DNA from: Candidatus Heimdallarchaeota archaeon
GTDB taxonomy: Archaea; Asgardarchaeota; Wukongarchaeia; Wukongarchaeales; JBHIFL01
DNA length: 14,040 nucleotides
Reading direction: 5' to 3'
Assembly (NCBI GenBank): GCA_046761065.1
Contig: JBHIFL010000094.1
Coordinates: 1 to 14,040, forward strand
The notes under the pieces are model-generated. The model made no database searches. It saw only the letters and a program-made list of their open reading frames with translations, and had not been told where the DNA came from. Shown here piece after piece: positions 1 through 10,854 of this stretch. Within the stretch, counting starts at the first letter, position 1. The number at the start of each line of letters is the position of its first letter. The position numbers and the translations under genes are program-made.

Positions 1-1641
1 TTATTGTCAAATGTTGTGGATTGAGCGTATCCTTCAGTCATTTAATCACCTCAATTACCCATACAATGCTTTCTTTCAAAAAGACATTCTGAGTTCTCTT
101 CAGTTGCGAGAAAATCTTCCTCTTTCCCATTCAAAACTCGCAAAATATGAATCTCTGAGCTATTTTGGTATCTGTCGCTAAAAACGAGGCTCTCAGAGCC
201 TCTCTAAGCGACGATCTCAAACCAATCCTTATTCTAAACCTTTATTATTTTTTGCTATAGAGCAACTTCTTCTGTATATAGCTGATCCGCTGGAGAGGTC
301 TCCTCTTTCAATTCACCATCTATGAAGACTTTTTCTTGTAAAACGAGAGGAATCATCTTATATCCTTTCAGTCTCTTCCACCTCTTCTGGGCCTCCTTGG
401 TCAGCTTGAATACCATGGTCATGGTGGCGGTGCGAGAACCGCATCCTTTGGTCCGTCTCGTCCTCAGACGTACAGTCGCAAACGTAGATTCTATCGGATT
501 GATCGACCGGATATGAATCCAATGGGTAGAGGGAAATTCATAAAAAGTGAAAAGCGCATCTTTGTCTTTCTTCAAACACTCTACCGCTTTCGGGAATTTC
601 GCTTCATAGACATCAATAAAGTGCTCATAAGCCTCCCGCGCTGACTTCTTACTCTCTGCCTCATACATGTCATGGATGTGTGACTTAGCCTTTGACTGCA
701 TGCTTTTGGGAAGCTTATCTAAAACATTGGCGGTCTTGTGTACCCAGCAGCGTTGTTCTTTTGAGGTGGGAAAAACCTCCCTCACCGCTGCCCAAAACCC
801 CAGATTCCCATCTCCGATACACAGCTTGGGCCCTTGCTTTAATCCTCGACGCTTGAGCGACAGCAGAAGCTCCCTCCAGCTGAGCTTGCTCTCCCGGTAT
901 CCGTCGCTTACCGCCAAAAGCTCTTTTTTACCCTCTTCATCTGCAGCCATGATAATCAAAACACAGACTCTATCATCATCCAAACGCACATTGAAATACA
1001 CACCATCTACCCAGAAGTATACATATGTTTTCTCACTCAGGTCTCTCTTGGACCATTCTTTATACTCTTCCTCCCACCGGGCCTTCAGACGCACAATATT
1101 AGTTGCAGAGAGCCCCTTGGCCCTCTCTCCAAGTATCGCCGCTAACGCCTGGGGAAAATCACCAGTGGAGATCCCTCTCAAATATAATGCAGGCACCAAA
1201 TTATCGATACTCGGTATCCGGCGTAAATACGGAGGCAGTATCGTGGAAGTAAACGACTCTGCGCCGTTTTGCTTCCTCAGCTTCCGGTCATCCACCCGTG
1301 GCTGTCTCACCCGAATCGGTCCCAGCCCCGTCAGTATCTCCCGCTCAGGCAAAGACCCATTCTTTACCGCCAACCGATACCCCCTCTCATCCCTCTTGAA
1401 TTGATTCTTTACAATGTATTCTTCTACTTCATTCTCTACAGCAGACTGCAACATCTTTCGGGCGCCTTCCCTTAAGGATTCCTCTAGGAGTGACTTTGGT
1501 GAAATTTCTTCTGGATTTTTCTCTTCTTTCTCGTTATACTCACTCATGAAAGCGTATCCTCCTTTCTTTTTTAGTTTTTTTTCTTTTAACTCTAAAGGAT
1601 ACGCTTTTTTCTTATCTGAATCCACAACTTTCGATTATATC
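1..1641 (-). mobile_element. IS256-family insertion sequence (left end at or just beyond the window edge)
   Basis: Imperfect terminal inverted repeats: 1-25 TTATTGTCAAATGTTGTGGATTGAG vs reverse complement of 1616-1640 ATATAATCGAAAGTTGTGGATTCAG (19/25). Subterminal AGCGTATCCTT at both ends. Encloses a Mutator-type transposase. Target duplication cannot be checked because the left flank is outside the window. Confidence 0.9.
255..1547 (-). CDS. IS256-family (Mutator-type) DDE transposase
   Basis: Motifs YLRGISTGDF, YFWVDGVYF, ESKLSW, IGDGNLGFW, QRCWVHK, IRSINPIES. Start placed at ATG 1547 behind AAAGGAGG; the track start at 1625 lies inside the terminal repeat. Confidence 0.95.
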   Translation of the reverse strand: MSEYNEKEEKNPEEISPKSLLEESLREGARKMLQSAVENEVEEYIVKNQFKRDERGYRLAVKNGSLPEREILTGLGPIRVRQPRVDDRKLRKQNGAESFTSTILPPYLRRIPSIDNLVPALYLRGISTGDFPQALAAILGERAKGLSATNIVRLKARWEEEYKEWSKRDLSEKTYVYFWVDGVYFNVRLDDDRVCVLIIMAADEEGKKELLAVSDGYRESKLSWRELLLSLKRRGLKQGPKLCIGDGNLGFWAAVREVFPTSKEQRCWVHKTANVLDKLPKSMQSKAKSHIHDMYEAESKKSAREAYEHFIDVYEAKFPKAVECLKKDKDALFTFYEFPSTHWIHIRSINPIESTFATVRLRTRRTKGCGSRTATMTMVFKLTKEAQKRWKRLKGYKMIPLVLQEKVFIDGELKEETSPADQLYTEEVAL

Positions 1642-2927
1642 CCCTCCTCGTCTTCTAAAGCATTAAACTGGTGGTAAGGAAGAGCTTTTCCTTCAGCTAC
1701 GGGCTGTTCAGGGGCAAAATTTTTATAGGCATATGATGTTCGAAAATGTTCGGGATAGTTCGATACCAGTTCAAAAAAGGAGGCATGCCATTCCTCTTCA
1801 TTTTCCTTTTTATAATGATAACGAACGATATTATAGAGAGCCTCTGCTCGTAATTCTTCATATGGACTTTTTTTAGCTATCTCTGAAAGCATATCTATAC
1901 TTTCATCCAGTCCGACAAGATTAACGGCGTCTGTCAATGCCGTGTAATGCATCATCCATAGGGGGGAGTCTGGCGATAATGAATTAAGTAATGAAACGGC
2001 TTCTGATTCAGAAAGATCAATTTCACGTGAGAAACGAAATTTGGCTAAGGCAGCAGCATTCGATACGGCTGGATTCTGATAGTTATTCTGTATGGTTTTG
2101 AGATCTGCGAGGTATGGAGAAAAATCGTGGTCATAACTTCCTTCTTCTCCCCGCATCTGGAACAGTGCTCTTGAGAAAATGAAATCCACATACTCATCAA
2201 TCATTCGGGTATAAATTGTTGCAATGCCGGTCAGTTCGTCTGAGACATCCTGAGAGAATTTGAGATCAGAATCCGTTACATAAAATGTGTATTCAGAAGG
2301 TTTAAAATGGACTATAAATTTTGGATCATCGGCAGACTTTGTCATTCTGTTCATTACAGGAGTATCAAGTCCTCGTGCATCTACTCTCAATGTGTACTCT
2401 CCATCTGTTCCGGAAAGTGAACTCATTGCATATTGATTTACAATATAGTGAATTGTATCCCGGTCAGACTCAATCTCTGCAGTCCAAATGCCCTCCGGTT
2501 GTTTTGCCATCTGTATTCCTTTACGTGGATCAAAATCGTTAAAATCACCGACAATAACGGGATTTGGATCATCGAGCAGTACGGGTGAACGGAGGGTTAC
2601 CTCAAGATCAAATGAACCGGAACCGGGAGGTAAAAAAGTAAATTTAGGCTGATAGCCCGGAGCGCCAAATTTCAGAATAGCCGGTTCATCTTTTCGAAAC
2701 TGAATAGTAATTGGCTTCTCTTTACCTCCTTCTTTTGAAGTGCGTGGTGTTCCAAGCCAACAATCTTTAATGTCAATAACTTGCAAGCTGTAAAATGGTA
2801 ATTCAATACCCTTTTCATCAGTAATTTTTACTGTTACTGAAGAAATGTGACTCTCTTTTTGATTCGAACAGCTATTAACAATAAAAGCTGTAAGCAAGAA
2901 AGAGATCAATACTCTGTTTACAGTCAT
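1642..2927 (-). pseudogene. Cassette-borne putative lipoprotein, 3'-truncated by the IS256 insertion
   Basis: Signal-like N-terminus MTVNRVLISFLLTAFIVNSC (alternative start 2972). Internal IVGDFNDF...GIWTAEI resembles a CBM48/early-set fold. The frame runs into the IS end and stops at 1635. The last residues (VAEGKALP..F) resemble the lead-in to a TlpA/redoxin domain (inference). Confidence 0.65.
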
Positions 2928-2968
2928 CGTAATTTGACTTTGGTTGCGATAGAAATATAACGTTTTGC

Positions 2969-3045
2969 GCATAACATTCGAATTCACCCGCCTTGCGAGC
3001 CGCTGGAAGCGGCGAGTAAGGTCGGGTGGAATGAGTTGGTATGGG
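2969..3045 (-). other. attC site (R'' degenerate)
   Basis: Minus strand CCCATACCAACTC-ATTCCACCCGACCTT...AAGGCGGGTGAAT-TCGAAT-GTTATGC: paired arms with extra bases on the 5' arm and canonical R' GTTATGC, directly after the stop codon at 3048. Confidence 0.85.
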
Positions 3046-3047
3046 TT

Positions 3048-3767
3048 TTAAAAATCATTCGCAATCGTAAAAATCGACGACACTGCACCTATTGCTGTAG
3101 CTTTGGATATCGTATGTTTTTTACTTTTTTCATTTTCTATATGAACCAGGTTTCTAAAATGTCTAACGGAATCACTTAAGCGATGTATAGCCTCTTTTAA
3201 AATCCCATGGTTTTGACATGTTTTGATATATTCATCGAATGTATTCCTAGCAGGGCTTAAACCCTTGTGAATTAGATATTGTCGTAATAGCTCTTCAATT
3301 ACAGCACCAGACAAAATCACAGATGGCTTTGAGAATCCATTTTTCGCCAAGATGTATGCATGTTCGATATCACGAAAAATTATACTCCTTTGAAAATTAT
3401 CTCTTATGAAATTAATTTTTCGTCCAAATTCTTTTTTCGTAATTTCGAATTCTTCTGCAATGGTAAACCATGAATATTGAGTGTCCATATTTTTCACCTC
3501 TTCTCCACTGTTTTCTAATTCATTTATTGCCATTTGTAACTGGCTAACCATGATATTAAAAGCTGGCTCCAAAGTATATGAGGAAAGATTAAGATTCATT
3601 TTGTGTGCATTTTGGATAAAATTAACATAATATTGTTGGTTAAATTTTAGCAAAGGTGCAACTTTGTTGGCCCATTCAATGCATGCTTGTTGGGAAGGGA
3701 ATCCTTCTTTAACTTCTTTTATTTCAAACAATTTCTTTAATTTTTGAAGCAAGCTATTTTTATTCAT
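3048..3767 (-). CDS. Cassette protein with C-terminal DUF4145/HEPN-like domain
   Basis: SVILSGAVIEELLR helix and RHFRNLVH motif; AT-rich; bounded by attC sites on both sides. Confidence 0.7.
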   Translation of the reverse strand: MNKNSLLQKLKKLFEIKEVKEGFPSQQACIEWANKVAPLLKFNQQYYVNFIQNAHKMNLNLSSYTLEPAFNIMVSQLQMAINELENSGEEVKNMDTQYSWFTIAEEFEITKKEFGRKINFIRDNFQRSIIFRDIEHAYILAKNGFSKPSVILSGAVIEELLRQYLIHKGLSPARNTFDEYIKTCQNHGILKEAIHRLSDSVRHFRNLVHIENEKSKKHTISKATAIGAVSSIFTIANDF

Positions 3768-3776
3768 CTTTAGTTA

Positions 3777-3834
3777 GTCCTACGTGCTCTTCAGCCGCAG
3801 CGGTAAGCTGTCGGCTGCAAGAGCAATGTTGGGC
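3777..3834 (-). other. attC site (R' non-canonical GTAGGAC)
   Basis: Minus strand GCCCAAC-ATTGCTCTTGCAGCCGACAGC-TTACC-GCTGCGGCTGAAGAGCAC-GTAGGAC. R'' GCCCAAC is complementary to this cassette's start GTTGGGC at 4359-4353. Confidence 0.9.
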
Positions 3835-3846
3835 GAAATGTATAGG

Positions 3847-4077
3847 TTATTTTGCTACTTGTAGCGCTTCTTCCGCTTCGCGGGGTAATGAGACGAGAAC
3901 AAAGTAGGACTGAGGATAAAGATAATCTTCTCCGGATTCATCAACGACTCGGAGATATCCTTCCTTTTCTGCATCTTCATCCGGCAGTATCTGATAAATC
4001 TTGCGCTTTTCTAAATCCTCGCAGTCCTTATTCTCAATGCAAAGTGCAAATTTATGATTTTCCTTTGTTTTTGCCAT
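3847..4077 (-). CDS. Small acidic hypothetical protein, second gene of a two-gene cassette (possible antitoxin)
   Basis: 76 aa, starts 3 nt after the upstream stop with GGAG in front; motif LRVVDESGEDYLYP; ends just before attC. Confidence 0.8.
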   Translation of the reverse strand: MAKTKENHKFALCIENKDCEDLEKRKIYQILPDEDAEKEGYLRVVDESGEDYLYPQSYFVLVSLPREAEEALQVAK

Positions 4078-4080
4078 AAT

Positions 4081-4326
4081 TTACTCCAAAAACCGTTTGA
4101 TTTTCATTTTCTTTCTACCGATGCCGTGGGCTTCATACCAGTGCACTTCAGCTTTACGGATATTGCCGCTCTGAAGCCTAACCATAGCAAATCCTTTAAG
4201 TTTTCGCCACCGAGCAGAACCAAATTGCCTTTGAAGCCGCATTATATCACGAATCCTTCCACCGATGGCAATAGTTTCAACTTCCTCAATTTCCCTAATT
4301 ATCTCAAAATACATAGGATTTTTCAT
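4081..4326 (-). CDS. Small basic hypothetical protein, first gene of a two-gene cassette (possible toxin)
   Basis: 81 aa, Arg/Lys-rich, motifs WRKLKG and AEVHWYEAHGIG; begins ~30 nt after GTTGGGC (4359-4353). Confidence 0.8.
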   Translation of the reverse strand: MKNPMYFEIIREIEEVETIAIGGRIRDIMRLQRQFGSARWRKLKGFAMVRLQSGNIRKAEVHWYEAHGIGRKKMKIKRFLE

Positions 4327-4352: not shown

Positions 4353-4396
4353 GCCCAACTATTAATATACAGCATATTGTATATTAATAGTTAGGC
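4353..4396. other. Palindromic double-attI core (bidirectional recombination site)
   Basis: GCCCAAC-TATTAATATACA-GCATAT-TGTATATTAATA-GTTAGGC. 4367-4392 is identical to 8600-8625 (right attI) and the left arm is the exact reverse complement of the attI end. A cassette starts at the GTT on each strand. Confidence 0.85.
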
Positions 4397-4403
4397 ACCT
4401 AAG

Positions 4404-4432
4404 TTGCATCCAAGTAGGCAAAAGTGTATATT
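4404..4432 (+). promoter_or_regulatory. Sigma70-type promoter internal to the TA cassette
   Basis: TTGCAT-17 nt-TATATT, upstream of AAGGAG (4455-4460) and ATG 4469. TA cassettes typically carry their own promoter. Confidence 0.6.
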
Positions 4433-4468
4433 AGAGTGAGGTAAGATTTTTAAAAAGGAGTTTGGGTT

Positions 4469-4699
4469 ATGTCATCCAATGCAATTGCCACGTTGGTCAA
4501 AATGATGGAGTCTTTGCCTGAACCGGTGCAAGATCAAGTAATCCAGCATCTTCGAGAATATCTCTTGGACTTGCAAGATGAGTTGGAATGGAATAGACAG
4601 TTCAAGAAAACACAGAACCAACTAGTTGCTGCTGCAAGACGGGCCAAACGGGAAATCGCGAAGGGGCACGGGAAACCAATGGACTATGACAAATTATGA
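4469..4699 (+). CDS. Putative type II antitoxin
   Basis: 76 aa, AAGGAG RBS, ATGA overlap with the downstream RelE/ParE-like gene, typical ...KPMDYDKL tail. Confidence 0.75.
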   Translation: MSSNAIATLVKMMESLPEPVQDQVIQHLREYLLDLQDELEWNRQFKKTQNQLVAAARRAKREIAKGHGKPMDYDKL

Positions 4700-4962
4700 A
4701 ATCTGCCACACTACCATCTTTTTGGAAGGCATATGAAGCTCTCAGCAAAGAAATTAAACGAAGTGCCAGAAAAGCCTACCAATTATGGGCAAAGAATCCT
4801 TTTCATCCCTCACTCCATTTCAAATGTATCAACACCGAAGAAAACATTTGGTCTGTGAGAATCACGCGTGGTTACCGTGCTATTGGTATTCTTGAGGGAG
4901 ATACAGTTACGTGGTTTTGGATTGGAAGCCACGACAATTATGAGCGCTTTTTCTCGTCCTAG
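4696..4962 (+). CDS. RelE/ParE-superfamily toxin
   Basis: NPFHPSLHFK, WSVRITRGYRAIG and WFWIGSHDNYE motifs; 88 aa; followed by attC. Confidence 0.85.
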   Translation: MKSATLPSFWKAYEALSKEIKRSARKAYQLWAKNPFHPSLHFKCINTEENIWSVRITRGYRAIGILEGDTVTWFWIGSHDNYERFFSS

Positions 4963-4972
4963 AAATAAGGTG

Positions 4973-5034
4973 GCCTAACAACTCGCTGCAGCCGACGCCG
5001 CTGGAGGCGGCGCAACTGAGCTTTATTGTTAGAC
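4973..5034 (+). other. attC site of the TA cassette (plus polarity)
   Basis: GCCTAAC-AACTC-GCTGCAGCCGACGCCGC-TGGAG-GCGGCGCAACTGAGC-TTTATT-GTTAGAC, extra bases on the 5' arm. R'' is complementary to GTTAGGC at 4390-4396. Confidence 0.92.
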
Positions 5035-6279
5035 GGCCTTATTGCCATGTGCACCGCCATGCTCCGCGACGGCTTCACGTAAGACCCTTGCCTGTTCAGA
5101 GAGACCTTTCCGCACCCAATCCCTCCATTGAGGTGTACCGCCCGTTGGAAAACTACCGTCATCCAGAAGAAAGTCAGCCAGTTGAGCGATGAGGAGCAAT
5201 GTCCTGCCATTGTGGCGTGCGAGTAGATCAAGCTAAAAGTTGCTGGTCATTGGCGACGGGCCTTGTGGTGTTTCCGCTACATACCAAAGGAACCACTCCA
5301 GCGCCTCCCACACACTTGACGCCCATTCAAGGGCGTGCCCTTCGGCCCAGAGCTGAGTATCTAAATCTCCTAGCAGTCGGAAGGACGGAGTGTTCTGGAG
5401 ACTCGACAGCAACGATTCCTTATCTACGCCGTGCTCTGCAGCCTGTCGAGCGCATGACACCAGGCCCTCAAGCCATTCATCGGCCTGGTTCAAATCCACG
5501 GGCATGTTGTCTCGTATCGCCTGGAAATCGGGGTTAGGCGGAAATCTTATCTCCCACGAGATGGCCCGAAGATCACAATCGTCTGGCGGGAGCAAAAACA
5601 CTCCTCTTTGTTCGTAAATTCGCCGACTGAACGGAGGCGGGAGCAAAACCGTAAGCGCCGCGTATTTCCAGGCGACTACAGATGGTATCGCAAAAACGAC
5701 GGCATCATGCGTTCGCGCACTTCTAGAGGCGAAGTATATTGCAACAGCAGGATCAGCGGAGAAATCGAGTAGTTTTGAAGCTATTCCGTGGTGGCGACCA
5801 AGAGCTTCAAGTGCGAGACGCCCCGGGTGCACTAACGAAAACTTCCGGTCGCGGGTATGTTCCCAGGGCAAGATGTGGTCGAGTAACAAGACAAACAGAT
5901 CCATAACGTTGCGCTCGTGTTGTTGGTCGACACCTTCGCGGTCTATAGTCGCAACGATTGGCAAAGAGGAGTCGCTCTGACCTCGGTAGTAGCATCTTAC
6001 AGGCTGAGGTTTTGCGGTGGCTGGGTCTTTTGCTAGAAGGAAGTGCTCCAACTCAGTGTACAGGAAAATTCCCGCGTGCCATGGGCTTGGCGCATAGGCC
6101 AGCTTGTCCCCATCGTCGAACGTCACGTCTCGTACGACATTCTTGACCTCGCGTTCAAGGTCGGCAAGGAGTTCTTTGTCAGGCGGAGCGTCTGGGTCCA
6201 GGAACGCCACTATCGGGCCGAAGCGCGGCAACGCGTTGAGTCGGCTCCAGAGTGCCTTGGCCTCCGTAGTCGTTGTCAT
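5029..6279 (-). pseudogene. FRG-domain protein cassette gene with an in-frame TAG at 5233-5235
   Basis: YYRGQSDS..PI, RHHGIASKLLDFSADPAVAIYFAS and RIYEQRGVF are FRG motifs. The frame stays open for 67 codons after the TAG and ends at a TAA (5031-5029) inside GTCTAAC. The 348-aa product may still be expressed. Confidence 0.8.
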
Positions 6280-6304
6280 TCGCTTACCTATCGATCCAAG
6301 GGCC

Positions 6305-6370
6305 GTCTAACGCCTTGCGCGTAACCTGCAGGCGGCGAAGCCGACTGTCAGGTTCATGCGCCTGTTCGAC
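6305..6370 (-). other. attC site (minus polarity)
   Basis: Minus strand GTCGAAC-AGGCGCATGAACCTGACAG...CTGCAGGTTACGCGCAAGGC-GTTAGAC. R'' with flank (CAGTCGAAC) is complementary to the cassette start GTTCGACTG at 6881-6873. Confidence 0.92.
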
Positions 6371-6373
6371 TGC

Positions 6374-6865
6374 TCACTCAACTGGCGTGAAATGTCGGGT
6401 GATGAGTTCCCACTTGTCGCGATGGGCACTGAGGTCCTTGGGCCACACGGCACAATGTACAGACCGAGGATTCCTCGGTCTCACTCGGCCCTTGTATGTC
6501 TTGTGGAAGTGGTCCTGCAAAACCCTCAAAGGGAAGATGTAGAACTCATCCGGTGCATCTGATCTCAGCAGCACGAATACACAATGCAGGTCTGGATTTG
6601 CCAGTCGCTTCTTTCCCTTCACCACCTGTCGATCACCCTCAAAGGCAATCTTCAGGAAGCGAGTAGCTCTGAACTGCCAGGACGGTCCGTTGATCGCCTT
6701 CACTTGGATTGGCAGCGAGTGACCAGACAAGTCTGAAGCCAGCAAGTCGATCTCTGGCACATTTCCAGCGAAGGGTGTTGCCAGTATACCTCGACGACCA
6801 AGTTCAGCGACGACGAGATGCTCACCTATCTGTCGAGTGAGTTGATTGCTGAAACCGCGCTTCAT
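6374..6865 (-). CDS. PD-(D/E)XK nuclease-fold protein, first cassette of the left array
   Basis: GEHLVVAELGRRG...PEIDLL...IQVK catalytic pattern; lies between attI-left and attC. Confidence 0.75.
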   Translation of the reverse strand: MKRGFSNQLTRQIGEHLVVAELGRRGILATPFAGNVPEIDLLASDLSGHSLPIQVKAINGPSWQFRATRFLKIAFEGDRQVVKGKKRLANPDLHCVFVLLRSDAPDEFYIFPLRVLQDHFHKTYKGRVRPRNPRSVHCAVWPKDLSAHRDKWELITRHFTPVE

Positions 6866-6874
6866 CGCATGTCA

Positions 6875-7020
6875 GTCGAACTATTAATGTACAGCATGCT
6901 GTATTTGATACAAACCGCCCTCAGTAAACGTCATATATTAAGTGGTTTTATCAATTATCCCCGTGAAATTACAGTATTATCTTAATATTATCCATATTAG
7001 ATTGCAAGTCGTATATTCGA
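6875..7020 (-). repeat. attI-left / Pc region (copy 1 of inverted repeat)
   Basis: Canonical position upstream of and divergent from intI; ends ...ATTAATAG|TTCGAC at the first cassette; 126/142 identical by hand alignment to 8484-8625 in inverted orientation. Confidence 0.88.
6979..7007 (-). promoter_or_regulatory. Pc-like promoter for the left array
   Basis: TTGCAA-17 nt-TAAGAT pointing at the attI crossover; lies in the 47-bp block perfectly conserved between the repeats. Confidence 0.65.
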
Positions 7021-7051
7021 TGGCTTTAGTATCCAGCCTGGGAGCAATGGA

Positions 7052-8353
7052 TTGAATAATCAACGAAAAAACCTCGCCGAATTTGAAGATTTTATCAAGC
7101 GTTTCCGTCTAGTTCCCCCGAAAAAAACCCGATTTTATGTTTATTGGGTAGAGCGGTTTATTAAATATTATAAATTCAGGTCTTCCAAACCATTAAAACA
7201 AACCATTGCTGCTTACCTTGAGACTATGGAAACGGATTCACGTTTTGCCGAATGGCAAGTCAAACAGGCGGCGGATGCCATTCTGTTATATGCTGAAAAA
7301 TATCTCAAATCAGATAAAAGACCTCTTGCCCTTTCGATAAATTATCCAGTTGATTTGAAAAAAGATGTTTCGGACAAGATATTCAACAAGACAAGCTGGA
7401 AAGGAATCTTAGATAAATTGCATGAAAGTTTACGGCTTCGACATTATTCCCCCAGGACGGAAAAATCTTATCGCATTTGGATCAATAAATTCCGGAATTA
7501 CGTAAACGATCGCGATCCCCTATTGCTTGAGGGGAAGGAAGTAAAAGACTTCTTGACCCATATCGCTCTCCATGATCGAGTTTCGGCTTCCACACAAAAC
7601 CAGGCTTTTAATGCTCTATTGTATCTTTTCCGGAATATTTTACAGAAAGACTTGAGCAATCTGAAAGATACTATAAGGGCACGGCGGAGGAGAAAATTAC
7701 CGGTTGTTTTGACTCGAGAAGAGGTCCAGCAGCTGTTTTCCTTTCTCGAGAGTCCCTATATTCTTATGGCTCAACTGCTTTACGGAAGCGGTCTCCGCCT
7801 GCTTGAATGCATCCGCTTGAGAGTCAAGGATATCGATTTCGCCAATAATGTATTGATCATCCGGGCAGGAAAAGGCGAGAAAGATAGAACCACCATACTC
7901 GCGGATAAAATCAAGGAATCTCTGAAATCACATTTGCATAGAATTAAGAGACTTCACCGCGAAGATTTAGCGGAAAGATACAACGTCACAACGCTTCCAG
8001 ATGCTCTGGAGAAAAAATATCCGAATGCCAACAAAGAATGGGCCTGGCAATGGGTATTTCCCTCGAAAAGCCTAGTGCTCCATCCCAAGAATGGAAAGGT
8101 CTTGCGTCATCATATTCAACCAAGCACCCTTCAGAGAAAGATCAAGGAAGCCGTAAGAAAATCTGATATTTCCAAACCGGCAAGCTGTCACACGCTCCGG
8201 CACAGTTTCGCTACGCATCTTTTGGAAGCAGGGCACAATATCCGAACAATTCAGGAGCTCATGGGACATAAAAACGTGAACACCACAATGATATACACTC
8301 ATGTTGTTCGAAAGAGCTATTCAGACATTTCCAGTCCTTTGGACAAGCTGTAG
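7052..8353 (+). CDS. intI: Integron integrase, long form with N-terminal extension
   Basis: Tyrosine recombinase motifs YGSGLR, GKGEKDR, HTLRHSFATHLL, LMGH and TTMIYTHV, plus the integron-specific insert LPDALEKKYPNANKEWAWQWVFPS. TTG start after GGAG. Confidence 0.97.
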   Translation: MNNQRKNLAEFEDFIKRFRLVPPKKTRFYVYWVERFIKYYKFRSSKPLKQTIAAYLETMETDSRFAEWQVKQAADAILLYAEKYLKSDKRPLALSINYPVDLKKDVSDKIFNKTSWKGILDKLHESLRLRHYSPRTEKSYRIWINKFRNYVNDRDPLLLEGKEVKDFLTHIALHDRVSASTQNQAFNALLYLFRNILQKDLSNLKDTIRARRRRKLPVVLTREEVQQLFSFLESPYILMAQLLYGSGLRLLECIRLRVKDIDFANNVLIIRAGKGEKDRTTILADKIKESLKSHLHRIKRLHREDLAERYNVTTLPDALEKKYPNANKEWAWQWVFPSKSLVLHPKNGKVLRHHIQPSTLQRKIKEAVRKSDISKPASCHTLRHSFATHLLEAGHNIRTIQELMGHKNVNTTMIYTHVVRKSYSDISSPLDKL

Positions 8354-8483
8354 AGAAGGGATAGAACTTAACTCAAGAAAAACTGTTCCTATTAATTTCC
8401 CAGGCTATAGTCTTTTGCGATAAAATAAAAAAAGTGATTTCTTCTACAAATTCTATGGCAGGCGATGATGGATATTAAAGGAG

Positions 8484-8629
8484 TCGAATATACGACTTGC
8501 AATCTAATATGGATAATATTAAGATAATACGGCAATTATGCGGGGATATTCGATGAAACCATTTAATATACGACGTTAATTGAGGGCAGTTTGTATCAAA
8601 TACAGCATATTGTATATTAATAGTTGGGC
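8484..8629 (+). repeat. attI-right / Pc region (copy 2, downstream of intI)
   Basis: Inverted copy of 6879-7020. Similarity stops right after ...ATTAATAGTT, where a cassette begins (GTTGGGCGGCAT). Confidence 0.88.
8497..8525 (+). promoter_or_regulatory. Pc-like promoter for the right array
   Basis: TTGCAA-17 nt-TAAGAT, identical to the left copy. Confidence 0.65.
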
Positions 8630-8642
8630 GGCATAGGTTATC

Positions 8643-9263
8643 GTGGAAGAGCACATGAGTACAGGCAACATGGGTCTGTTGATTCTCCGCGCATTGTCGC
8701 GGGCGCGCATTCCGATCTTGACGGTCGGCTTGACCTATCTCGTCACAGTTGTGATTGGAATCGTGATGGCGCATGCGGGGAATGAGTTTGCTCTGTCCCA
8801 TAGGGACAGCGTTGTAGCCAAGGCACAGGGGAGTCCCATCGTAATAGCCCTCCGCGAAGGTAACGGGCTGCGTGCTGCTCTGCTTGACTTCGGTGGCAAT
8901 CTCGTTGGCGCTCTCGCAAATACCCTCGGCGGATTAGGTGTTATCGTCCCATATCCTGTAGTAGCGTATCGTGGCTGGATCGGCGGTATCGTTTCAGTGG
9001 ATGGTGCTCATGTGAGCCGATTGATGAATCCCGGTGAGGCCGTGTACTATATCTTCACCTTGATTCTCCAACTCATTCCCTACTCGTTGGCTGGCGGAGC
9101 GGGGGTGAACTTGGGGGTGGCATATTTCCGTCCACGAGTCTTCTATCAAGGCGAGAAATGGCTAGGATTGCCAAAGGAAGCGATTCGGGATGTGCTTAGG
9201 ATTTATCTGCTCGTAGTGCCGCTGTTTCTCGTTGCCGCCCTGTGGGAGTTTCTTGCACGGTAA
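8643..9263 (+). CDS. SpoIIM/DUF95-like integral membrane protein, first cassette of the right array
   Basis: Several hydrophobic helices, YRGWIGGIV, LQLIPYSLAGGAG, C-terminal PLFLVAALWEF; between attI-right and attC. Start may be ATG 8655. Confidence 0.75.
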   Translation: MEEHMSTGNMGLLILRALSRARIPILTVGLTYLVTVVIGIVMAHAGNEFALSHRDSVVAKAQGSPIVIALREGNGLRAALLDFGGNLVGALANTLGGLGVIVPYPVVAYRGWIGGIVSVDGAHVSRLMNPGEAVYYIFTLILQLIPYSLAGGAGVNLGVAYFRPRVFYQGEKWLGLPKEAIRDVLRIYLLVVPLFLVAALWEFLAR

Positions 9264-9302
9264 CTTGGACTGCAGCCGAGACCACATTTGGAACGAAATG
9301 CC

Positions 9303-9372
9303 GCCCAACACGCGCTTGCAGCCGACCCTGCTCCGCTGCGCTCCGCAGGGCGGCTAAAGCGCCCCGTTAACC
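9303..9372 (+). other. attC site (plus polarity)
   Basis: GCCCAAC-ACGCGCTTGCAGCCGACCCTGC...GCAGGGCGGCTAAAGCGCCCC-GTTAACC. ATGCCGCCCAAC (9298-9309) is the perfect 12-nt complement of GTTGGGCGGCAT (8623-8634). Confidence 0.93.
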
Positions 9373-9391
9373 GGCCCTGTTCCCTCACTGC

Positions 9392-9640
9392 TCAACACAG
9401 CTCGAAAAACGAGTCGGTGCCAAGATGCGGAATCATGTCCCCTGCCAATCCTTCAAGCCGGCCGGTCGGGCCGATGTCGATCCAGTCCTCAATGCTCCCA
9501 AGGTAACACATGCGTTCTGCTCTGTACATCCGCGTTTCCTTATCGTGAAGAAAGAACCGCAGAATAGGCGCAAACTGGCCACGTGAATAATACGTTTCTC
9601 GAAACTTGTGATAAGGAGCCGTAGAACCTAAGCGGTCCGG
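9392..9640 (-). pseudogene. 3' remnant of a hypothetical gene (not in the ORF track)
   Basis: Hand translation ...RGQFAPILRFFLHDKETRMYRAERMCYLGSIEDWIDIGPTGRLEGLAGDMIPHLGTDSFFELC*; protein-like, no upstream start before an in-frame TAG near 9700. Confidence 0.6.
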
Positions 9641-9722
9641 GGGCAGTTCTTGACATTCGAACTGACCACTGGAGTTGCTTCTTTTGGCCTTGGCAGCCTA
9701 TCTATGAGTCTGTCGTTTTTGC

Positions 9723-9947
9723 ATGAGAGATGAAATGAAATCCGTCACAGTCCATAATTATTCGAAAGACAAGTACTATCCTCGCGTGGTCCAGGCGATT
9801 GCAAGTATCCTGACCCGCTCTGACGTAGTCACGCCTGTTGATGTGTTAAGGGAAATGGGGAACCTTACGAAGAAGAATCACGATTCCTGGCATAAGGGGC
9901 AGGTTCCGTATCTTGTATGTATGGAACCAATCCCCAGAAAAAAATGA
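9723..9947 (+). pseudogene. Probable N-terminal fragment of a hypothetical protein
   Basis: DKYYPRVVQAIASIL..DVVTPVDVL..MGNL.....W.KGQVPYL looks like a real coding start that breaks off after VPYL (family recollection, unverified). Confidence 0.5.
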
Positions 9948-9997
9948 AAGATGATTGATCGAGCTATCCCGAACCACAGGCTGGAGTAGGATGCTCG

Positions 9998-10192
9998 TTA
10001 CACATGCACTTCTTTAAGAAATTCGAGAGCATCATCAATATTTTCCAATTGAAAATAGGCATAACCAATCTTCTTCCGAACATCTTTCACCCCAGGATTT
10101 TGGGAGAGGATTTTCTGAAAATGAGCAATCGCTGACCCATATTCCATCATATCCAACAGCATATCTGCCTGCTTCATTATGGTTTTTTTCAC
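9998..10192 (-). pseudogene. Short TPR-repeat ORF, probably truncated
   Basis: AIAHFQKILSQNP...IGYAYFQLENIDDALEFL is a TPR pattern; only ~1.5 repeats before the stop. Confidence 0.6.
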
Positions 10193-10247
10193 TCTTTTTC
10201 TCTTTTTTAAATTATATCATAATGAAAGTGCCTTAAAAATTTTACGT

Positions 10248-10263
10248 AGCAAATAGTATGCCA
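10248..10263 (-). promoter_or_regulatory. Sigma54 (-24/-12) promoter-like motif
   Basis: Minus strand TGGCATACTATTTGCT fits TGGCACG-N4-TTGCW spacing; ~55 nt upstream of the TPR ORF. Confidence 0.5.
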
Positions 10264-10644
10264 AAATGATATTGAGGTAATCTCTGCATTTTTGGATGAA
10301 AAATCGTCATTAGGGAGGACACTTGTATATTAATATAGACACTTAATTGAGAAGGAACTCGCCTTTACTGCGGAAAATCGAATAATTATAAAAATCCCCT
10401 TATTTAATTAACGTTTTTACCCCCTAAAAACGCTCATTTAAGCAAAATAGTAAGGGGAGGACTGAAGCTAACTTATTGAAAATAAAATAGATACCTAGGC
10501 CCGACCCTTTATGGCGATTTCCACTGTGACCGGGTTTTCTCCTCTTTTCTTTATTGCTAGACTTTGTCCCAAAGTGACTGGATTTTGAATCTCAACCAAA
10601 CTGTCACCCGCAATTACTTTTATTCTGTCAGAGGGAAAAATTAG

Positions 10645-10673
10645 TTGACTTCAGACAGCCTATTTCTTAAAAT
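10645..10673 (+). promoter_or_regulatory. Sigma70-type promoter
   Basis: TTGACT-17 nt-TAAAAT upstream of the 10855 gene. Confidence 0.55.
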
Positions 10674-10854
10674 TTATATTTTTTCTATAGAAATACTAAA
10701 TTTATATTGACTTGAGTGTGTTGAAAATAATATTCTCATTTCAAATCGTGAACTCGAGGAAAATGGGGAAAATTGTGAGGAATTCTTAGTAATCCCCAAA
10801 ACGAACTTCCTGCATAATCCTCAATATCAATAAGAACCGAGAAAGGAGGACATC

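Follow-up and report, generated by a model that had tools for sequence, protein, structure and literature searches.

The window analysed here is an entire 14-kb contig (14,040 nucleotides (nt), JBHIFL010000094.1) of the metagenome-assembled genome (MAG) GCA_046761065.1, assigned to Candidatus Heimdallarchaeota archaeon, and it carries an integron integrase gene (intI) and a run of cassettes, compositionally foreign. Two of these cassettes, one with a toxin-antitoxin (TA) gene pair on the plus strand and one with an FRG-family gene on the minus strand, converge and meet tail to tail at a single attC site, attC-A, which serves as the end of both. A preliminary description made from the letters alone had proposed such a shared site, and the analysis reported below bears out most of that proposal and weighs how the junction may have arisen. 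The features on which the argument depends are, from left to right:

4353–4396: palindromic double attI ("PAL"), with crossovers at 4358|4359 (minus face) and 4390|4391 (plus face)
4391–5028, plus strand: TA cassette, with the antitoxin at 4469–4699, the ParE-like toxin at 4696–4962 and the attC body included
4973–5034, plus polarity: attC-A, read as the TA cassette's own site, and the site of the junction
5028–5038: shared 11-mer GTTAGACGGCC, which is R' of attC-A on the plus strand and an R''-type end of the FRG cassette on the minus strand, and holds the FRG TAA (5031–5029)
5029–6310, minus strand: FRG cassette without an attC body, gene from 6279 to 5029 with an in-frame TAG at 5235–5233
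6305–6370, minus polarity: attC-B, site of the 163-amino-acid (aa) cassette, whose R' (6311–6305) heads the FRG cassette
6374–6865, minus strand: open reading frame (ORF) of 163 aa from the ORF list, first cassette of the left (minus) array, with no family match
6875–7030, minus strand: left attI with an inverted repeat of about 145 base pairs (bp), crossover G6881|T6880 on the minus strand
7052–8353, plus strand: intI, encoding an integron integrase of 433 aa with an N-terminal extension
8478–8629, plus strand: right attI with the inverted repeat, crossover G8623|T8624

attC-A spans 62 nt between its core sites R'' (GCCTAAC, 4973–4979) and R' (GTTAGAC, 5028–5034), with the crossover at G5028|T5029, and has the RYYYAAC and GTTRRRY ends and the imperfect palindrome (about 57–141 nt) of an attC. 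Both strands fold into a hairpin more stable than shuffled sequence (z of −2.65 and −4.12); the plus strand has its bulges on the 5' arm, and the minus strand carries GTCTAAC in its 5' arm and a bulged T and C, six bases apart, on its 3' arm. IntI cleaves at 5'-AAC-3', a triplet that the bottom strand has in R' and the top strand in R'', and in wild-type bottom strands the extrahelical bases are found on the arm opposite the AAC (PMC5027507). Since the minus-strand bulges of attC-A lie opposite its AAC arm, the minus strand is the bottom strand and the polarity is plus. Consistent with this, the plus strand aligned in a plasmid search to the top strands of the attCs of dfrB2 (on R388), aadB, aadA1 and aac(6')-IIa, each of which directly follows its gene in an integron of class 1 whose intI1 lies upstream and diverges. 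R1, a covariance model trained solely on the top strands of six class 1 integron attCs (alignment A1), gave attC-A 57.4 bits in the plus direction against 13.9 in the minus direction; non-training controls of known polarity scored 56.8 and 15.1 bits. The same model called three of the window's other four attCs minus (attC-E, attC-D and attC-B) and one plus (attC-C), matching array context and bulges, and in all five sites the strand called bottom was the one of lower folding energy. The plus polarity of the preliminary description is thus upheld, and the minus polarity that it had named as the contrary outcome was not found. GC and AT skew gave no information on the polarity of attC-A or attC-B, and complementarity of cassette ends was dropped as a polarity test because, as derived here, it holds for either polarity.

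In layout and in much of its sequence, attC-A is like the class 1 attCs of the aadA/aadB/dfrB type (dfrB2 on R388, aadA7), with which it shares the order R'' (RYYYAAC), 5-nt spacer, left arm carrying two additional bases, loop stem rich in GC, 6-nt spacer and R' (GTTRRRY). It differs from them in two respects: the first extrahelical base on its bottom strand is C, where published attCs usually have G, and to the right of its crossover lies the R'' end of a facing cassette rather than a co-oriented start. The C recurs in attC-B, attC-C and attC-D, G being found only in attC-E.

The genes to the left of attC-A form a TA cassette as judged by sequence, with a predicted toxicity. The toxin matches Pfam ParE_like at 42 bits (a very widespread and highly conserved family, with 1737 matches) and is preceded by a 76-aa antitoxin ORF that overlaps it by 4 nt, and the gene pair recurs in homologous loci. 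At locus L016, where the toxin is 95% identical, the DNA matches window positions 4396–5002 at 94.9% identity, a stretch that opens with the cassette's first bases and extends into its attC, whose left arm is the same in both loci; on the upstream side, the homology sets in at G|TT (G|TTAGACCACC in L016, G|TTAGGCACC in the window). Cassettes of the same TA type are present in L019–L022, with differing neighbours in L019 and L022, and throughout L018–L022 an attC directly follows the toxin gene on the same strand (R1 33.3–56.8 bits plus, about 15 minus); for the homologous cassettes with the same type of attC the plus scores are 52.9–56.8 bits. Because these homologues elsewhere carry the same attC in the same direction, attC-A is the TA cassette's own site, as had been claimed from the window alone.

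Geometry alone would also permit attC-A to be the FRG cassette's own site, that cassette having been inserted whole in inverted orientation (as derived from PMC5027507), but the attC body runs on from the TA genes without a break and has homologues among the TA-cassette attCs of six other loci, and these homologues rule out an inverted FRG attC. A chimera of assembly meets a comparable difficulty: three other contigs, from separate read-set assemblies, are 100% identical to the window across the junction, which is therefore no artefact of one assembly, and an 11-nt repeat is shorter than typical assembly k-mers. We find an explanation of either kind scarcely credible. Models with an inversion between the left attI and attC-A were also set aside, as they still presuppose an FRG cassette without an attC and explain nothing extra.

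The facing gene encodes a protein that matches Pfam FRG at 52 bits. Its ORF of 348 aa stops at the TAG (5235–5233), and the same frame runs on to the TAA (5031–5029). In P0002, a 453-aa protein that an exhaustive protein search returned as the closest full-length homologue (45% identity), the TAG aligns with a Glu and the 67 codons past it are homologous to the C-terminus (57 residues at 40% identity, E of 4e-6 for the pair), both proteins ending within about ten residues after the aligned part. This homology past the TAG indicates that the gene originally ended at the TAA and is now nonsense-mutated, by what looks like a recent mutation. The frame thus reaches the TAA that the preliminary description had placed within R', if only through the in-frame TAG, and the closest homologue does not end at the TAG, the outcome that the description had set against its own reading. 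Since 5035–5232 is coding, no space is left for a separate FRG attC, and R1 detected none in that interval on either strand, so the earlier claim that the cassette lacks an attC body stands. On the minus strand the TAA lies inside GTC-TAA-C, so that the stop falls within R'', as it also does in the cassettes of aadB, dfrB2 and aac(6')-IIa.

The two ends of the FRG unit correspond to each other. The shared 11-mer (5028–5038) is the exact reverse complement of 6301–6311, which comprise attC-B R' and the first bases of the FRG cassette, so that R' of attC-A, read on the minus strand, is the R'' of the FRG cassette just as proposed. With one bulge allowed, the complementarity extends to 13/14, and we estimate the chance of an 11-nt complement for this one pair, the GTTRRRY consensus being allowed for, at about 1 in 4000. 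The cassette start, G|TTAGACGGCC, is canonical, with TTRRRY directly after the G of attC-B. In L066, a locus from another metagenome, an FRG fragment of 86% identity begins at the same G|TTAGACGGCCC behind unrelated upstream DNA, and this recurrence shows the FRG unit to be a genuine mobile cassette with that 5' boundary. Further on (845–935), the L066 contig runs into what we take to be sequencing-adapter sequence (...TATACACATCTCCGAGCCCACGAGAC), so that its 3' part is not genomic. At the distal end of the window's unit, the R'' (GGCCGTCTAAC) is present and complementary to the start, and is followed by 55 nt that make up the body of the TA attC, of opposite polarity. The complementary ends mark 5029–6310 as a complete cassette minus its attC body, whichever its polarity. 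A scan of metagenomes for FRG returned only distant genes outside integrons (L014, L015), and the FRG gene is absent from four related genomes.

The polarity of the array to which the FRG cassette belongs was read from attC-B. If this site had been mis-called, one plus array could run from the palindrome through the TA cassette and attC-A and on through the FRG and 163-aa genes in antisense, with nothing shared and nothing lost. Such a reading can draw on the low R1 score of attC-B (13.7 bits, on the minus strand) and on the independence of end complementarity from polarity. It must be set against a bulged T and C that both lie on the plus-strand 3' arm, a plus strand that is the more stable of the two, the lack of any plus-strand R1 match among those listed, and a homologue of attC-B in L023 that directly follows its gene, in the same direction and with the same layout. 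It would also leave both genes antisense, with the FRG stop within the first bases of its cassette and the stop of the 163-aa ORF 4 nt short of the minus-strand R''. On this evidence a single co-oriented array is very improbable.

The intact intI lies 2 kb from attC-A, and its product matches TIGR02249 at 441 bits (cut-off 265) over the full 315-position profile. Ahead of the TIGR02249 region it has an N-terminal extension of about 115 aa (window 7052–7405); most close IntI homologues measure 429–433 aa, which indicates that the extension is conserved in the clade. Repeats of about 145 bp flank the gene, the left one being an inverted copy of 8478–8629 at 87% identity. The terminus ...TGTATATTAATA|GTT flanks intI on either side, marks each face of the palindrome and, at the left attI, is conserved across the clade; divergence sets in right after the GTT, where cassettes start. 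The inverted pair surrounds intI in all ten related loci with both flanks readable (these include the window, L023, L024, L025, L026, L028, L032, L042, L043 and L048), and only one copy is seen in three others (L027, L036, L045 and L047 being counted by contig limits or decay). Where attCs were detected on both sides, in L028, L032 and L043, those on the left are minus and those on the right plus, save for the convergent far arm of L028; L048 departs from this in having plus attCs on the left of intI. Rather than a single attI next to intI and one co-oriented array, the window and its relatives have opposite arrays that run outward, and we take the locus, on this layout, to be a two-armed integron (attI–intI–attI).

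The palindrome at 4353–4396 forms a perfect 44-nt hairpin (z of −6.9), composed of two attI outer arms placed head to head around GCATAT. Over 26 nt its right half has the same sequence as the right attI, cassettes start at GTT on both of its faces, and it has neither bulges nor, by R1, a strand preference (12.2 versus 9.9 bits). It is best read as a collapsed second platform without intI, in which the sequence between two core palindromes would have been deleted. Read in this way, its plus face heads the TA array, the left attI heads the 163-aa and FRG cassettes, and the two arrays converge at 5028|5029. The remaining features of the window lie outside this convergent segment:

Left end of the window, before attC-E: IS256 transposase gene and a 450-aa ORF
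2969–3044, minus polarity: attC-E, a control (R1 32.2 bits on the minus strand; bulged T and G on the plus-strand 3' arm)
Between attC-E and attC-D: 239-aa cassette
3777–3834, minus polarity: attC-D, a control (R1 18.7 bits on the minus strand; bulges on the plus-strand 3' arm)
Between attC-D and the palindrome: two-gene cassette
Plus strand, between the right attI and attC-C: 206-aa ORF
9303–9372, plus polarity: attC-C, a control and the site of the 206-aa cassette (R1 partial match of 14.8 bits on the plus strand; bulges on the minus-strand 3' arm)

A junction of the same geometry is found in L023. To the left of its platform, a plus-strand cassette of 154 aa with a plus-polarity attC (26.9 versus 15.8 bits, with bulges on the plus-strand 5' arm) abuts a minus cassette that encodes a 944-aa TIR/WD40 protein and reads from the left attI. 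The attC and the stop of the 944-aa gene are 113 nt apart, an interval without structure (z of 0.6 and −0.2) and without an attC of that cassette's own; the cassette's two ends are 10-nt complements, and a degenerate attI-like arm lies ahead of the 154-aa cassette. That this geometry is shared by two of the loci examined speaks for a favoured reaction and against a one-off accident. In L028, the right arm, with four plus attCs, meets four minus attCs that start from a solo attI-like site facing the platform (15170–15580, 19600–19630); here both terminal attCs are kept, about 290 nt apart, with a truncated gene piece between them, and these convergent arrays are a plausible precursor state of the shared junction. 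Elsewhere in L023 (10738–10848), where the right arm meets a converging array, a plus and a minus attC overlap by 19 nt in an imprecise collision. The cassettes at 1379–4213 and 6028–10690 of this locus have domains of anti-phage type (the 944-aa TIR/WD40 protein, SLATT, ThsB-like TIR, QueC-like).

In the window the join falls exactly at IntI cleavage positions, the FRG R'' being linked at AA|C to the TA attC. As to which enzyme acted, which strand it cut and in what order the steps followed, we infer that the best explanation is an exchange by IntI in which the attC that the FRG cassette once had was cut on its top strand, in R'', and linked to a partner cut in the canonical way, an explanation that we hold, with reserve, to be probable. 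The former FRG attC would have been cut at AA|C in R'', a step that every IntI route constructed here needs. Its partner might have been the bottom strand of the TA attC, in which case both hairpins would have formed on the minus strand and the exchange would have excised the FRG attC body with the intervening DNA, deleting everything between the convergent arrays. Alternatively, the partner might have been the plus face of the double attI, the TA cassette being inserted later by an ordinary reaction. Top-strand events occur at about 1e-3 to 1e-4 of the frequency of bottom-strand events, and attCs of the aadA7 and dfrB3 types are the least selective (PMC5027507). Of the earlier proposal that an R'-to-R'' event joined two opposing arrays, the two opposing arrays are thus confirmed, and the wrong-strand step, which fits the published top-strand chemistry, stands as a proposal.

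The same sequence could have been produced without IntI, by a slippage or microhomology deletion between direct copies of GTTAGAC (R' of the TA attC and the complement of the FRG R'', in terminal attCs that were once separate) that removed the FRG attC and the spacer. Slippage is favoured by hairpin-rich DNA between repeats, both partners would have had the heptamer in which the junction falls, and the 19-nt overlap of opposed attCs in L023, at non-canonical positions, indicates that imprecise deletions do happen. Such a deletion requires, however, that the original R' of the TA attC was GTTAGAC; the geometry recurs in L023 with another heptamer (GTTAGGC) and a join that is again at the canonical position; and the locus has an intact intI, whose product an exact G|TT join would be. 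We consider an IntI-independent deletion unlikely.

Nor need an inter-array deletion have taken place if the FRG cassette already lay beside the double attI on its plus face, or beside the same face of the not yet collapsed platform, and the TA cassette was inserted afterwards by an ordinary attI × attC bottom-strand reaction. The boundaries of the TA cassette agree with this, the left one being exactly the plus-face crossover of the palindrome and the right one exactly the FRG R''. The palindrome, moreover, lacks bulges and strand preference, and in experiments strand choice is lost on removal of the extrahelical bases (PMC5027507); attI-derived sites can bound functional cassettes (PMC12901181). 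The loss of the attC from a GC-rich FRG cassette with a standard stop in R'' would still need a cause, however, and would merely be moved to an earlier time, and the abutment of that cassette on an AT-rich, platform-derived site would have to be explained as well. An order of events of this kind seems to us distinctly unlikely.

Several points weigh against the IntI exchange that we favour, in addition to the heptamer common to both partners. The polarity of attC-B, and with it the convergence of the arrays, depends on a weak score and on bulge geometry, and R1 is narrow (aadA/dfrB type) and may overlook unusual attCs. The search for the FRG cassette elsewhere with its native attC, a check that the preliminary description had suggested, found none, L066 giving only the 5' boundary before the fragment breaks off inside the gene. 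No intermediate or variant of the junction was found either, the sole other contigs that carry it being identical to the window, and all data are short-read metagenome assemblies of one population. L023, taken alone, also admits of a reading as a single co-oriented array in which one gene lies in antisense.

The proposed exchange has a close counterpart in top-strand attC recombination as measured by Nivina et al. 2016 on engineered substrates in vitro and in vivo, in which AAC cleavage in R'' falls exactly at the position of the FRG-side junction (PMC5027507). Top-strand events are there predicted to invert polarity relative to the array, and cassettes inserted facing the promoter are stated never to have been observed in natural integrons (PMC5027507). 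The junction in the window differs in being a natural footprint, and one in which two arrays are joined rather than a single cassette inverted. Fused and attC-less cassettes of mobile integrons, as described by Gonzales Machuca et al. 2026 (PMC12901181), likewise combine a lost attC with a boundary of foreign origin, and an attI-derived site likewise occurs inside the array; the sites in those cases are all co-oriented, whereas here the neighbouring site is of opposite polarity and comes from a converging cassette. The sedentary chromosomal integrons of the Vibrio type also have TA cassettes with their own upstream region inside the array. In contrast to those, intI here stands between two inverted copies of attI that feed two arms, and a second, intI-less double attI gives rise to convergent arrays. 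In the papers searched for two-sided, convergent and opposite-polarity arrays, we found no published report of a shared-attC junction and no description of a two-armed platform with a second double attI.

A cassette so joined is probably fixed in place, because on its distal side it offers only the top strand of the TA attC for pairing with attC-B; canonical excision of the FRG cassette should be strongly disfavoured. Its nonsense codon fits, without proving, a silent, immobile and decaying distal cassette. The TA cassette, bounded by competent sites, would still be excisable. TA cassettes may protect neighbouring DNA from deletion, as is established for Vibrio arrays. If the pair in the window is addictive, deletions that remove it would be counter-selected, and the deletion would end exactly at the TA attC; an addictive TA cassette may in this way have set the limit of the deletion. 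One could go further and suppose that the IntI of this clade regularly resolves array collisions by the R'' (top-strand) cut, a shared attC ending both arrays, the distal cassette being frozen and the TA cassette setting the deletion stop. This generalisation is speculative, and we regard it as doubtful. If true, shared tail-to-tail attCs would be a normal and selectable feature of arrays, and with them top-strand attC recombination would for the first time be on record in nature.

It is a premise of integron biology that cassettes stay co-oriented through strand selection at attC, and the breakpoints of this junction, together with that in L023, match top-strand cleavage. The junction offers a concrete substrate on which to study how strict IntI is in its choice of strand and what becomes of array collisions in two-armed integrons, and it bears on the permanent fixation of cassettes and on TA cassettes as limits to array deletions. 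It also calls for caution with annotation tools that presuppose a single attI and a single polarity in each integron.

Within the MAG as a whole, an R1 search returned two attCs that pass E 1, both on the contig of the window, and the second intI of the MAG (on C178) is unrelated at the DNA level. The relatives of IntI, with up to 93% identity in the best segment and 66–87% over the full length, are mostly from Aminicenantes MAGs, and no genome of the MAG's family or phylum with this IntI was found among the genomes searched. The contig may owe its place in this MAG to mis-binning or to recent transfer, most of the closest IntI relatives and platforms being in bacterial MAGs.

On the right arm, the segment that follows attC-C (9372–9697) contains an open frame of 101 codons on the minus strand, which ends 19 nt from attC-C R'. 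This frame has no Pfam match, and no complementary cassette end was found for it; it may represent a second tail-to-tail junction.

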